DNA of 64,000 nucleotides, from contig CAZRGC010000003.1 of the NCBI GenBank assembly GCA_964599625.1, forward strand, positions 3,816-67,815. Reading direction: 5' to 3'. The position numbers and the translations under genes are program-made. The stretch is from an uncultured Gammaproteobacteria bacterium (lineage in GTDB: Bacteria; Patescibacteriota; Microgenomatia; UBA8517). Below, one piece after another: positions 3,186-21,267 of this stretch. Within the stretch, counting starts at the first letter, position 1; each line of letters opens with the position of its first letter. Below the pieces are notes generated by a model. It was not told where the DNA came from and ran no database searches. It was given only the letters and a program-made list of their open reading frames with translations.

Positions 3186-3310
3186 TATTCAAATTATCAT
3201 TATATATTCATATCACAACAATGTCAGTTTCCAGGCTTTGTTTTTGGTGCAGTCTATTACCACACCTGTTTCCTGGCGTTTGCAGACAATATGCTCTAAA
3301 ATACAGGGTA

Positions 3311-3718
3311 ATGAAATACAAATTACTATTGGCAACTGTAGCCTTCACATTTTCTTTCATGTTCAAACTGGTAGTACCTACTACAGCCCTAGCTGTTAGC
3401 CAGGATGTTACCTGCAACGGAAATCAAGGTGTCGATACAGCAATCGGATGTTTGAACGTTCTGTCCACTCCCGAAGACTTTTTGGGGCAGCTTTTGGGTT
3501 GGGCTGTGGGAATTGGTGGAGGCCTTGCGTTTATCTTGATTGTATATGCAGGATTTATGATCATGACGGCCGCAGGAAATCCGGAAAGACTCAAGGCTGG
3601 TCAGGAGCTTTTGACTTCGGCAATTTCTGGTCTTATTCTTTTGATCTTCTCAATTTTTGTACTCAGATTCATTGGAATTGATATACTGGGACTTAACAAC
3701 TTTGGTTTTGGCGGATAA
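3311..3718 (+). CDS. T4SS pilin-like protein (VirB2/TrbC-like), paralog 1
   Basis: Start re-set to the ATG at 3311, preceded by AGGG. Signal peptide MKYKLLLATVAFTFSF...ALA, then two hydrophobic helices flanking GNPERLKAGQELLTSAISGL. This architecture is shared with 7 downstream paralogs. Confidence 0.6.
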   Translation: MKYKLLLATVAFTFSFMFKLVVPTTALAVSQDVTCNGNQGVDTAIGCLNVLSTPEDFLGQLLGWAVGIGGGLAFILIVYAGFMIMTAAGNPERLKAGQELLTSAISGLILLIFSIFVLRFIGIDILGLNNFGFGG

Positions 3719-3720
3719 AT

Positions 3721-4035
3721 ATGGCAGCACTAAATCTTGATTCAATTGAAAGCAGGGGTCTTGGCACATCCGTTCCCGGAACTCCCGGAGATATAATCAA
3801 TGCAATCCTTCCGTATGTATTTGCTTTTGCGGGAATTGGGCTTTTGGTGTTTTTAATGATTGGAGGGCTTCAAATGATGACGGCCAAGGGTGATCCCAAA
3901 GCAATAGAAGGTGCACAAGCAAAAATAACAAGCGCCCTTATTGGCTTTTTGATTATCATAATTTCATATGTTCTAGTCCAGCTGTTGACTAAAGTGCTTG
4001 GCCTTGGTTCTCTGGGAGGTGTTTTTGGTCCATAA
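3721..4035 (+). CDS. T4SS pilin-like protein, paralog 2
   Basis: 104 aa with a TM-loop-TM architecture and the loop motif KGDPKAIEGAQAKITSALIGF. Confidence 0.6.
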   Translation: MAALNLDSIESRGLGTSVPGTPGDIINAILPYVFAFAGIGLLVFLMIGGLQMMTAKGDPKAIEGAQAKITSALIGFLIIIISYVLVQLLTKVLGLGSLGGVFGP

Positions 4036-18376: not shown

Positions 18377-18378
18377 TT

Positions 18379-21207
18379 ATGGCTAAACTATTAACCAAGA
18401 ATAATATTGAGGAGCTTTTTTATGCCTTTGAACATTTTTTTCCAGAAGGCTATGTTTATTCCAGCGACAAACCTTTTGTTTCTGGAAATTTTAAGTGGAA
18501 CAATCGGGAATCCTTCATTGAATCCATTAAAAATTTCACCGGGGTGGAAATAGATCCTAAAGATCCTGAATCAATAAAAAATGCACAATTTGCTTTAAAA
18601 AAGCTGGAAGATGACGCACCACTTGATAGCAATTTACCCGATCAAGCAAGGCTTAAGCAAATGGAAGCAGAAAGACTTAAAAGGGAAGCTGCCATAAAAG
18701 CCAGTGCCGAGGATGCAAAAATTCAAGTTCAAGCAGCAATCAAAAGACAAGAGGAGCTACACAAAACAATTCAAGGTAAAAAGATTTATCGAAGAGTAAA
18801 CACCCCACCCCCAGAAACATTAACTGAAGATAAAGCAAAAACAGTTGAAACCTTCAAAACAGCAGCAGTCGCCAACCCGGAGCAATTAACCCATCAAATA
18901 GCATCTGAGATAGAAGAAAGAATAAAAACTTCAATACCGGACGAGGTTGAACCAGAAGTGGTTAAAGCACTTTCTACAAGAGCAGCAGTCAGAGTTGTGG
19001 AAAATCTTAGAGGTAAATCACTTGCAGTTGAGGCACTTACAGTCAACAAAATCGCCGGTGACGAGAGCGTTGTTGGAACCGTAAATCCGGAAACTACAAA
19101 GCTGTTTATTAATTCCGCCGTGAATGTCGGTAATACAAAAATAATCGAGTACCAAATCGACAGAAAAATTGTCGCAGCTGCTTTCAACGAAGATTTTGCT
19201 TCAAATTTCTTGGGTCCAAAAGATTTAGATAAAGTAAATATTGAATTTTCTTTGACCCCCCAAGCAGGGTTTGAAGAATACGATCTTGGAGAAGTTACCA
19301 CATCACAGATAGATTTTTTGAACAAGCAAGACTTTGTTTTTGACACTATCGGAAGTGTTGGTTCAGGCGAAATAAAGTCGGTATTTTTAAAACAGGTTGG
19401 CTCTTGGATTGAAAGTAGTATTCCAGAGTCAGGAGCTGTCGCGGAAGCATACAACACCCCTCTGGTACAAGCAGCTTTAAGCTATTACGGGTTGGGTGAA
19501 CCAATTGCCTGGGAAGGGACAACATTCTTTGGAAGAATGGCTGTGGAATTTGGGTATGGCCCGACTTTTGGATGGGCAGGGCAAATTACTGGTATTGATT
19601 TTGGCGTAACCCAGGCATCTGCAAGTATTTCATCAGAGGTGGCCGCACAAGCCGCAGCAGGAACACTTTCGACAGAAATGACAGCCGCCGCAGTCAATAC
19701 TGCCGCTGTGGGCGGTGGAGTTGCCGCAACCGAAGGAGCAGCTGTTGTTGGAGGTGTGACTGCTGCCGCAGCCGAAGGAGCAGGAGCGGTAGTTGCAACC
19801 GGTGCAGTAGCTGCAGGTGGAGTTGCAGCCACAGAAACGGGCGTTGCAGCCGCGTCTGTCGCCGCAGCGCCCGTAACAGGTGGTGTCAGCTTGGCAATTG
19901 GCGCTGCTGTTGGCCTTATAACTGCAATTTTTGGACCTAAATTCCTGGATTGGGTTTCTAAAAACGCTAAAAAAGTTGACGGAACAAGTGTTGCGCTTGC
20001 AGGCGCATTTTTTGGAATGGTAATCGGTGGCGGAATATCAGGTGCGTTGATAGGCGCAAGCATAGGTCTTGGCTCATTTGGGCTCCTGACAGGAGGTTTT
20101 TCAGGTGTCGGCAGCGCCTTTTCAGGGGCCGCAACTTCAATTTTTGGAGCTTTCAGCGCTGCTTGGGCAATCCTTCTGGCCGAGACAGGTTTACCAATAA
20201 TTAGCTTTCTAATAGGTTTTCCGCTTTTGACTGCTTTGATTCTTGTGATAATAAACAACAGTGCTTATCTGGTACCACCTGGCGGCGACTCTTCGTTGAA
20301 TAGTACTAATGCCTATATATCGGTAGAGAAAAAAGCCGAACCAGCAGGCCAGGTCCCATCGCCTACAACAGTAACATACACGGTTACAATAACAGCCAAA
20401 AAGGACACTCTTTCGGGTATAAGTTTTACAGCCACTTGTAGTGCAATCAAAAAGAGCGGGGGAACAATTGATTGTAAAAACTTGGAACAACTTCCCGCTC
20501 CCCCAGCATCCATATCTCCGGGGGCTCCGTACTCATTTACGTTTACTTCAACTTATGGTTCAAATTTTAATGATTCCTTGGTTAGTGACAGCATCACAGT
20601 CACCGCCTCATCAAACGATGGCGGCGAGGTTTCCGAAACAGGCTCTGCGTCTGTGTGTTTTGGAGACTGCCCGCTTGGATGTTATAAAACAGTAGACAAC
20701 AACGAACCTTGGCCCGCCAACTTCAAATCAAACCTCGACGCAGCAGCGGCGACGCTTAGTGGAAGTCATCCGGGTTTTTCCCAAAAAGCGTGTGCCGGTG
20801 GCGAAATTAATATGTGTTACACAACAAAAAGTCCAAATCCTATTGGGTCGGGTGGTTTGTGTAACAGAACCATTTATGCCATTCATGCACACAGCGGTTC
20901 CTGCGATATTAATTACAACCAATGTGGTCTCAGAAGCCAAAGTGATGCCTTATATATCCTTACACACGAAGTGTCTCACCATATACAAAATATCAACGGA
21001 GGACTCCAAAGGCAATTTGAGCAACAAGTTCCCTCTTCCGAATGGCCAATATGCACATACAGCAACACGGGAAATCCTTACGAAAGCATGGCAGAAGGAA
21101 ATGCATTGTTTGTTGGTAAGCCGTCCTGGAGCGGCTGTGTAACAAACTATCAGTCCCAATACCCCAAGCATTATCAATTCGCCAAAAACGTAATGTTTGC
21201 CCAATAA
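18379..21207 (+). CDS. Large membrane protein with an N-terminal cytoplasmic domain, a Gly/Ala-rich multi-TM block and a C-terminal Cys-rich HExxH metallopeptidase-like domain
   Basis: No signal peptide. The 19.6-20.25 kb region encodes G/A/V-rich helices. HEVSH lies at 20965-20979, followed by ...ESMAEGN (a possible third ligand). 14 Cys in the last 200 aa. Confidence 0.5.
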   Translation: MAKLLTKNNIEELFYAFEHFFPEGYVYSSDKPFVSGNFKWNNRESFIESIKNFTGVEIDPKDPESIKNAQFALKKLEDDAPLDSNLPDQARLKQMEAERLKREAAIKASAEDAKIQVQAAIKRQEELHKTIQGKKIYRRVNTPPPETLTEDKAKTVETFKTAAVANPEQLTHQIASEIEERIKTSIPDEVEPEVVKALSTRAAVRVVENLRGKSLAVEALTVNKIAGDESVVGTVNPETTKLFINSAVNVGNTKIIEYQIDRKIVAAAFNEDFASNFLGPKDLDKVNIEFSLTPQAGFEEYDLGEVTTSQIDFLNKQDFVFDTIGSVGSGEIKSVFLKQVGSWIESSIPESGAVAEAYNTPLVQAALSYYGLGEPIAWEGTTFFGRMAVEFGYGPTFGWAGQITGIDFGVTQASASISSEVAAQAAAGTLSTEMTAAAVNTAAVGGGVAATEGAAVVGGVTAAAAEGAGAVVATGAVAAGGVAATETGVAAASVAAAPVTGGVSLAIGAAVGLITAIFGPKFLDWVSKNAKKVDGTSVALAGAFFGMVIGGGISGALIGASIGLGSFGLLTGGFSGVGSAFSGAATSIFGAFSAAWAILLAETGLPIISFLIGFPLLTALILVIINNSAYLVPPGGDSSLNSTNAYISVEKKAEPAGQVPSPTTVTYTVTITAKKDTLSGISFTATCSAIKKSGGTIDCKNLEQLPAPPASISPGAPYSFTFTSTYGSNFNDSLVSDSITVTASSNDGGEVSETGSASVCFGDCPLGCYKTVDNNEPWPANFKSNLDAAAATLSGSHPGFSQKACAGGEINMCYTTKSPNPIGSGGLCNRTIYAIHAHSGSCDINYNQCGLRSQSDALYILTHEVSHHIQNINGGLQRQFEQQVPSSEWPICTYSNTGNPYESMAEGNALFVGKPSWSGCVTNYQSQYPKHYQFAKNVMFAQ

Positions 21208-21267
21208 ACAAGTTTGTTCACTGCTTTGCTATATTTGCAAAGTTTGAATGAATATATAATTAAACTA

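Follow-up and report, generated by a model that had tools for sequence, protein, structure and literature searches.

Type IV secretion systems (T4SSs) of the Patescibacteria were surveyed in 3,035 genomes by Quinonero-Coronel et al. 2025 (PMC12102498). According to that survey, their VirB4 proteins form a monophyletic clade nested in the MPF_FATA type, genes for TrsD and PrgI adjoin virB4, dnaA and dnaN lie close by, arrays of 2-11 genes code for divergent VirB2-like pilins (mean identity 25%), notably in Microgenomatia and Saccharimonadia, and relaxases are almost absent (109 in the 3,035 genomes). The same survey, citing the transposon-sequencing (Tn-seq) study PMC10633639, describes the peptidase and lysozyme genes that follow virB4 as essential in Southlakia epibionticum. 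In that study (Wang et al. 2023), the cluster SEML1_0006-0019 of S. epibionticum ML1 was essential in co-culture, and a 2025 review (PMC12857230) gives the same picture of the Patescibacteria T4SS. Here, we describe a locus at positions 3221-21855 of a 64,000-nucleotide stretch (the window) of contig CAZRGC010000003.1 (assembly GCA_964599625.1), deposited as an uncultured Gammaproteobacteria bacterium. This locus is very probably a chromosomal, vertically inherited Patescibacteria-type T4SS of a Microgenomatia (Woesebacteria-like) bacterium, descended from MPF_FATA systems and unlinked from DNA-transfer genes.

The locus is composed of 17 open reading frames (ORFs), among which all those listed in an earlier note on this DNA were found in place:

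3221-3718, plus strand: VirB2-like pilin 1 (T4SS_pilin 2.4e-09, 37.6 bits; hydrophobic helices; alignment with the array)
3721-4035, plus strand: VirB2-like pilin 2 (T4SS_pilin 4.3e-07, 30.4 bits)
3998-4363, plus strand: VirB2-like pilin 3 (T4SS_pilin 5.6e-11, 42.8 bits)
4353-4742, plus strand: pilin-like paralogue 4 (two hydrophobic helices; without Pfam match; 12-22% identity in the array alignment)
4739-5113, plus strand: VirB2-like pilin 5 (T4SS_pilin 1.7e-10)
5114-5461, plus strand: VirB2-like pilin 6 (T4SS_pilin 3.5e-04, 21 bits, below the gathering score)
5469-5798, plus strand: VirB2-like pilin 7 (T4SS_pilin 3.3e-08)
5836-6144, plus strand: VirB2-like pilin 8 (T4SS_pilin 6.5e-09)
6157-8832, plus strand: Cys-rich 891-aa protein, exported or membrane-anchored, candidate of the VirB1 type (AlphaFold 2 model, C-terminal profile)
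8877-10676, plus strand: polytopic 599-aa membrane protein, candidate VirB6 analogue (about 8 hydrophobic segments, conserved position)
10744-13941, minus strand: variable slot gene for a 1065-aa acidic soluble protein, transcribed against the rest of the locus
14065-14337, plus strand: short ORF (90 aa, two hydrophobic helices) separating the slot gene from the PrgI gene
14485-15618, plus strand: PrgI/VirB3-like membrane protein, 377 aa (PrgI 5.2e-05; CarboxypepD_reg 4.1e-04)
15625-16332, plus strand: TrsD-like protein, 235 aa, resembling the N-terminal domain of VirB4 (NCBIfam TrsD 5.1e-07)
16337-18376, plus strand: VirB4-family ATPase of the MPF_FATA / CD1110 type, 679 aa (conju_CD1110, P-loop_TraG, PDB 4ag5)
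18379-21207, plus strand: 942-aa membrane-anchored protein with an HExxH...E (gluzincin-type) C-terminus (motif, orthologue alignment)
21214-21855, plus strand: 213-aa bitopic protein with a conserved ectodomain (one transmembrane segment)

The earlier note, which had recognized a non-conjugative T4SS-like apparatus of the candidate phyla radiation type, counted seven kinds of component (VirB2/TrbC-like pilins, a Cys-rich protein with an SLT-like domain, a VirB6-like protein, a PrgI/VirB3-like protein, a VirB4 ATPase, an HExxH membrane protein and a 1065-aa protein). All of them exist, but the TrsD-like gene and the conserved 213-aa gene had been overlooked. Its general reading agrees with the FATA/CD1110-type VirB4, with the Microgenomatia relatives, with the presence of dnaN and dnaA in most of their loci and with the lack of transfer genes. 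Profile searches on the ORFs matched PF18895, VirB4 models and, at a score just below gathering, PrgI.

The VirB4 protein matches NCBIfam conju_CD1110 (3.8e-111, 372.6 bits vs a cut-off of 325) and P-loop_TraG (2e-29), with Thermoanaerobacter VirB4 (4ag5, 1.5e-46) as its best PDB match, and is, judging from these profiles, of the monoderm MPF_FATA/CD1110 type. The genes for the TrsD-like and PrgI/VirB3-like proteins adjoin virB4. The former product matches NCBIfam TrsD at 5.1e-07, well under the curated cut-off, and the N-terminal region of VirB4_plasma at 9e-06. The latter begins with a PrgI/VirB3-like region (residues 1-90) and ends with a beta-sandwich-like domain, the two being joined by a linker rich in Pro/Ala; its first 83 residues match PrgI (E=5.2e-5, 24.1 bits vs a gathering score of 27), as the earlier note had proposed from the letters, and residues 272-333 show a weak match to CarboxypepD_reg. 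Both weak marks recur in the orthologue of one related locus (L084), and the weak PrgI mark alone in that of another (L081).

Relatives were taken from the 80 best VirB4 genome matches (contigs, one genome per species), whose VirB4 proteins are 53-85% identical to that of the window. By title, they include metagenome-assembled genomes of Woesebacteria, Gottesmanbacteria, Daviesbacteria, Microgenomates and Patescibacteria, and all share the locus. The TrsD-like gene was found in 74 of the 80 loci (39-80% identity) and the PrgI-like gene in 71, and dnaN and dnaA lie within 10 kb in 64. In closer relatives the recurring order is pilins, Cys-rich protein, polytopic protein, slot protein, PrgI, TrsD, VirB4, hydrolase, small bitopic protein, dnaN, dnaA and yidC; this gene order is kept in dozens of Microgenomatia genomes. 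In the window, dnaN (21852-22970) and dnaA (23261-24625), both identified by Pfam, directly adjoin the T4SS locus, as had been noted before:

21852-24625, minus strand: dnaN and dnaA with DnaA-box-like sites, origin-region context (Pfam matches)

The DnaA-box-like sites lie at 23207, 23228 and 23255 (span 23207-23263) in the spacer between dnaN and dnaA, with another at 24740, and rnpA, yidD, yidC and jag follow both genes. Many public third-party annotation assemblies titled "uncultured Gammaproteobacteria" or "Pseudomonadales" also carry the locus (L005, L008, L012, L014, L021-L032 and others); because of the content of the locus and its neighbours, these titles look like those of mislabelled records.

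This conservation bears on whether the locus could be an integrated conjugative element, complete or decayed, with its relaxase and coupling protein located outside the window. The VirB4, PrgI and TrsD families do stem from conjugative elements, and Gottesmanbacteria-type relatives have an ATPase resembling type IV coupling proteins (T4CPs) directly upstream of PrgI. Against it, the locus lies between SpoIID and dnaN-dnaA-yidC on the chromosomes of species-level relatives, too, even where VirB4 identity falls to about 55%, and its GC content does not differ from that of the adjoining DNA. The window contains no integrase or relaxase, and no tRNA flanks the locus (direct repeats were not looked for and oriT was not searched for); only 109 relaxases were counted in 3,035 Patescibacteria genomes (PMC12102498). 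Such an element is extremely improbable, and the locus is a vertically inherited chromosomal one.

Domain searches within the 64-kb window found no VirD4, VirB11, relaxase or integrase domain in any substantial ORF, so that the earlier observation of a missing coupling protein, VirB11 and relaxase stands. The absence of a T4CP and a relaxase in the window would also fit a DNA-uptake machine, similar to the ComB T4SS of Helicobacter or the archaeal Ced system, that imports DNA or nucleotides of the host and, hence, needs neither of them. VirB4 weakly matches the Ced ATPases (CedB 1.4e-12, CedD 6.8e-06), Patescibacteria lack nucleotide synthesis (PMC10633639), and T4SS loci co-occur with comF, recG and radA in the ABY1 class (PMC12102498). 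However, the Ced scores are far under the family cut-offs, the best family being the conjugative CD1110 type; there are no competence genes in the 64-kb window; and S. epibionticum cells that have lost comEC are viable though no longer transformable, in contrast to the T4SS, which is essential (PMC12857230). DNA uptake as the function of the locus looks distinctly improbable.

Seven of the eight small proteins encoded at 3221-6144 on the plus strand (102-165 aa) match Pfam T4SS_pilin (PF18895), six of them above the gathering score, and each of the eight contains two hydrophobic helices. Pairwise identity averages 25% and reaches its maximum (43%) between pilins 6 and 7. The most divergent of the eight, paralogue 4 (4353-4742), has orthologous fragments within the arrays of L006, L015 and L084, and its topology, the array alignment and these orthologues place it among the pilins, so that the eight VirB2/TrbC-like pilins of the earlier note are all retained. 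Pilin 1 has a longer N-terminus with 5 Cys, and its true start is likely the internal Met31 (about 3311), ahead of a signal-peptide-like stretch. The start of pilin 3 is probably an ATG near 4040 (the mechanically defined ORF begins at a TTG).

A large, conserved and divergent pilin array, together with the lack of a coupling protein to recruit substrates, might also belong to a pilus that serves adhesion only, in which VirB4 polymerizes the eight pilins, the hydrolases merely clear the wall and nothing is translocated. Adhesion is, however, already served by type IV pili in Patescibacteria (PMC10633639), a translocon of the TrsD/VirB3/VirB6 type has been kept, and the hypervariable cytoplasmic protein fixed in the locus (the slot protein, described below) would be hard to explain without export. 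An organelle of this kind appears unlikely.

Compared with the Microgenomatia type described in PMC12102498, the window locus shows the same MPF_FATA ancestry of VirB4, TrsD and PrgI/VirB3 beside virB4, no relaxase, tandem divergent pilins (8 here vs 2-11 published, with a mean identity of 25% in both) and a position beside dnaA/dnaN, rnpA and yidC; nothing essential differs. Pilin arrays, a missing relaxase and proximity to dnaA are thus features of a system type that is already published (PMC10633639, PMC12102498). The earlier note had considered the eight-pilin array, the HExxH protein and the SLT fusion as unmatched in characterized systems, but arrays of 2-11 pilins are given in PMC12102498, as is the essentiality of the peptidase and lysozyme genes after virB4 in S. 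epibionticum (cited there from PMC10633639), and its claim of novelty is overstated. VirB6 and virB4-linked VirB3 proteins are scarce in Microgenomatia according to the same survey, and the window contains a sub-threshold PrgI-like gene and a conserved polytopic candidate. Neither a variable opposite-strand gene nor a swappable hydrolase module was encountered in the parts of PMC12102498 consulted.

The cluster of S. epibionticum (PMC10633639) contains six pilins vs eight here, PrgI, a TrsD-like protein and VirB4 in a row, a large VirB6-like protein and large proteins of the lysozyme/peptidase type directly after virB4. It has no recognizable coupling protein or relaxase and is located within the first 25 kb of the chromosome. 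It belongs to another class (Saccharimonadia), and essentiality is known for S. epibionticum only. Its PrgI and VirB6-like genes are separated by SEML1_0011, for a helical protein of 999 aa, and SEML1_0012, for a VirB8 candidate of the NTF2-like type, both on the same strand as the cluster (PMC10633639), whereas the corresponding place in the window is taken by an opposite-strand gene and a search for an NTF2-like protein found none.

The prototype of the MPF_FATA type, the Prg/Pcf system of Enterococcus faecalis plasmid pCF10, has the order PrgH-PrgI-PrgJ (VirB4)-PrgK (an 871-aa hydrolase)-PrgL (208 aa). As in the window, its VirB4 belongs to the NCBIfam family CD1110, a PrgI-family protein is encoded directly upstream, a protein of about 870-940 aa directly downstream (a wall hydrolase, PrgK, in pCF10 and a putative hydrolase here) and a bitopic protein of about 210 aa next. 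The order PrgI-TrsD-VirB4-(942 aa)-(213 aa) parallels that of pCF10 and, therefore, the 942-aa and 213-aa proteins can be considered positional analogues of PrgK and of the VirB8-like PrgL, respectively. On the other hand, pCF10 lacks pilins and TrsD, and it codes for a relaxase, for PcfC as coupling protein and for the surface adhesins PrgA/B/C. Alignment of the locus families with single pCF10 sequences by hhalign (PrgH, PrgI, the N-terminus of PrgJ, PrgK and PrgL) detected nothing, a comparison too insensitive to be informative, because even PrgI was missed, although the Pfam model detects it.

The protein encoded directly after virB4 is built, from its N-terminus on, of a charged domain, a membrane region rich in Ala/Gly, an Ig-like region and an HExxH...E domain that contains Cys. 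The HExxH motif, already noticed from the letters, is at residue 863 of 942, and H863, E864 and H867, together with an E..AE motif about 40 residues further, are invariant in 8 orthologues. Profile matches of the C-terminus to the M34 lethal factor and to Zmp1 are weak (E about 0.08-0.1), and the NCBIfam match (0.0016) covers the motif only. Across orthologues (L001-L044), the membrane and Ig-like core is kept while the C-terminal catalytic module changes: among 15 orthologues at this position it is HExxH in 8 (window protein included), Peptidase_M23 in 5 and CHAP in 1. Since HExxH, M23 and CHAP replace each other among relatives, the module is, as far as such alignments tell, swappable and of the cell-wall-hydrolase kind, which suggests an adaptation to different host walls. 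This membrane-anchored wall enzyme with its catalytic swaps is one of the leads that the locus offers. The 213-aa protein that follows has orthologues in 8 loci, no Pfam match and an empty PDB profile search.

A second candidate wall enzyme is encoded after the pilins. The 891-aa protein contains 29 Cys, a single N-terminal hydrophobic helix and a beta-rich N-terminal part, and its AlphaFold 2 (AF2) model is confident (mean predicted local distance difference test, pLDDT, 87.3). Its C-terminal part (approximately residues 680-891) is a lysozyme-like/lytic-transglycosylase domain: it has the fold of the lysozyme-like superfamily, in which the first core helix ends with the catalytic Glu, and the alignment of a profile of the C-terminal 220 residues with MltC (E=0.031) places the conserved E717 on the catalytic "TES" motif. 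SLT_3 is matched by 3 of 11 locus orthologues, and the SLT-like domain of the earlier note is thus borne out. A Foldseek search of the model against the PDB returned no match, and nearly all of the 171 homologues of the protein are without any Pfam domain. The C-terminal module varies here too, being lysozyme-like in the window, SLT_3 in 3 of the 11 orthologues and NAGPA in one.

The polytopic protein holds its position in 23 loci and has 987 homologues, the best 120 of which are all without Pfam domains. No Pfam or NCBIfam match was obtained for the window protein, and its PDB profile search was also empty. The earlier note had called it VirB6-like: the polytopic nature holds, with about 8 hydrophobic segments, while the protein is a candidate VirB6 analogue from topology and position only. 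Together with the 213-aa protein, it offers VirB6-like and VirB8-like candidates for a class in which surveys with hidden Markov models found few.

From these components, a mechanism can be proposed in which VirB4 and the TrsD-like protein would dock on the PrgI-like and VirB6-like membrane proteins, forming a translocon in the cytoplasmic membrane. VirB4 would then pull pilin subunits out of the membrane, giving a pilus or conduit of several divergent pilins, and the putative lytic transglycosylase and HExxH peptidase would cut peptidoglycan of the own wall, and possibly that of the host, opening a passage for the structure. By analogy with S. epibionticum, whose homologous cluster is essential in co-culture, the apparatus would serve contact or exchange with a host bacterium, and not conjugation.

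Several points weigh against a Patescibacteria-type T4SS of this description. The PrgI and TrsD scores are both under the curated cut-offs; the VirB6 call is weak, with TrbL/VirB6 PF04610 matched by 1 of 18 polytopic orthologues (E=0.0015); and the VirB8-like (PrgL-type) role of the 213-aa protein is a guess from its position. A VirD4-like gene may lie outside the window, as is common in Patescibacteria (PMC12102498); the contig is about 212 kb long, and the window covers 64 kb of it. The epibiotic lifestyle of this organism is assumed, and a requirement of the system for growth on a host bacterium is known from S. epibionticum only and from no member of the Microgenomatia (PMC10633639).

Little is added here to what has been published on the Patescibacteria T4SS, of which the window provides a well-resolved Microgenomatia example. 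The one fresh lead is the positionally fixed, hypervariable cytoplasmic protein of the slot, a possible substrate or adaptor. It has no predicted transmembrane segment and no match in Pfam, NCBIfam, PHROGs or PDB sequences, and its AF2 model has a pLDDT of 79.7 and a predicted template modelling score (pTM) of 0.77. No Walker A motif was found in it, so that it lacks the P-loop of FtsK/HerA-type ATPases expected of a VirD4-type coupling protein. The protein had been described as an orphan, a label that has to be dropped: among 1.84 billion representatives, an exhaustive HMMER search recovered at least 56 relative clusters at E<=1e-3, one 97% identical and the others 22-64%. In the three relatives with contigs read, the homologue is always in the same slot, on the opposite strand and beside the PrgI-like gene, and between the VirB6-like and PrgI-like genes wherever both flanks are annotated.

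A tblastn search of the 80 relatives' loci with the 1065-aa protein gave no match. At the slot position, 22 of these loci contain a large minus-strand ORF, among which 5 code for T4CP-like ATPases and 2 for ClpB. By BLASTP, phmmer and jackhmmer, almost none of the slot ORFs is related to another or to the 1065-aa protein, and only that of L004 joins the window family. A single large protein (528-1337 aa) is encoded in the slot of each of 17 Woesebacteria-type relatives, with examples on the opposite strand such as:

L002, 5337-8108, opposite strand: slot occupant
L003, 1131-3443, opposite strand: slot occupant
L005, 5611-8097, opposite strand: slot occupant
L009, 5926-8148, opposite strand: slot occupant

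These occupants belong to many sequence groups between which no relationship is detected, even where VirB4 is 80-85% identical. L002, whose VirB4 is 85% identical to that of the window, codes for a 923-aa slot protein with its own family of 13 relatives. One member of this family (P0183) occupies the same slot, and another (P0193) adjoins genes of the size of the VirB6-like and Cys-rich ones with matching orientation, its contig breaking off ahead of PrgI. The profiles of the window family and the L002 slot family were aligned by hhalign with a probability of 0.05%, although the two may still share a fold. Loci in which VirB4 is only 75% identical bear recognizable relatives of the 1065-aa protein, whereas the slot protein of L002 shows no detectable relationship to it, so the divergence of the slot does not track that of the machine. 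Nucleotide similarity to five relatives ends inside the polytopic gene and restarts exactly at the start codon of PrgI.

The slot proteins share their size and a general composition. Charged residues make up 28-34% of the 14 analysed, 13 of which are net acidic, and the first 30 residues are rich in Pro/Glu/Gly/Asp (0.405 vs 0.187 in other window proteins, Mann-Whitney p=2.4e-7). A recent foreign insertion of the slot gene is unsupported by composition, the GC content of 10744-13941 being 0.42-0.43, like that of its neighbours. In the Gottesmanbacteria-type loci L040, L042, L045, L046 and L053, the slot upstream of PrgI holds a T4CP-like ATPase (in L053, a 730-aa protein encoded at 5572-7764 on the minus strand, with the Walker A motif GKTGTGKS and matches to TrwB_AAD_bind, 4.8e-07, TraG-D_C and DUF87), so that some Microgenomatia do retain a coupling-protein-like gene in the cluster. 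Hypervariable and yet constant in its place, the 1065-aa protein is the strongest candidate in the locus for a substrate or adaptor specific to the lineage. That the slot is an exchangeable cassette, coding in each lineage for its own effectors or substrate adaptors of the T4SS, is a speculative proposal with a fairly low chance of being right. It would fit the single large occupant per locus, the charged composition and N-termini of these proteins, their many groups, the return of nucleotide similarity at PrgI and the T4CP-like ATPase of the Gottesmanbacteria-type loci; if true, the slot proteins would be the first candidate cargo or adaptors of this system. Candidates for the cargo of the Patescibacteria T4SS are of interest, this system being essential in the only species examined for it.

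Next to the slot gene, the 90-aa ORF (14065-14337) has no Pfam match and no match in the 80 relatives' loci, where the spacer is only about 110-140 bp long, and it may be lineage-specific or no real gene. In one otherwise collinear relative (L085), three small genes for four-helix-bundle proteins lie among the T4SS genes; they are absent from the window:

5803-6177 of L085: 23S_rRNA_IVP / bAvd-like gene
7397-7780 of L085: 23S_rRNA_IVP / bAvd-like gene
13517-13867 of L085: 23S_rRNA_IVP / bAvd-like gene

Upstream of the pilin array lie three further genes:

541-765, minus strand: DUF5657 protein
789-1496, minus strand: bPH_2 membrane protein
1500-3185, minus strand: 561-aa SpoIID-domain protein with a coiled-coil N-terminus

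Because SpoIID is also beside the pilin array in L085, it may be functionally tied to the T4SS locus via cell-wall remodelling; one of the closer relatives with the full gene order has SpoIID at the far end as well. A scan of promoters and terminators gave a background level (38 observed vs 35.5 expected). The other 40 kb of the window contain housekeeping genes (leucyl- and methionyl-tRNA synthetases LeuRS and MetRS, TsaD, GroEL, glycosyltransferases, RmuC and a UvrD/PD-(D/E)XK helicase). Within them, the GC content falls to 0.335-0.352 at 26000-30000 vs about 0.41 elsewhere. The genes of this segment are 26905-28119 (Wzy_C, O-antigen-ligase-like), 28212-28622 (RNase H) and the first part of 28773-31433, which codes for an 886-aa DUF4012 protein.

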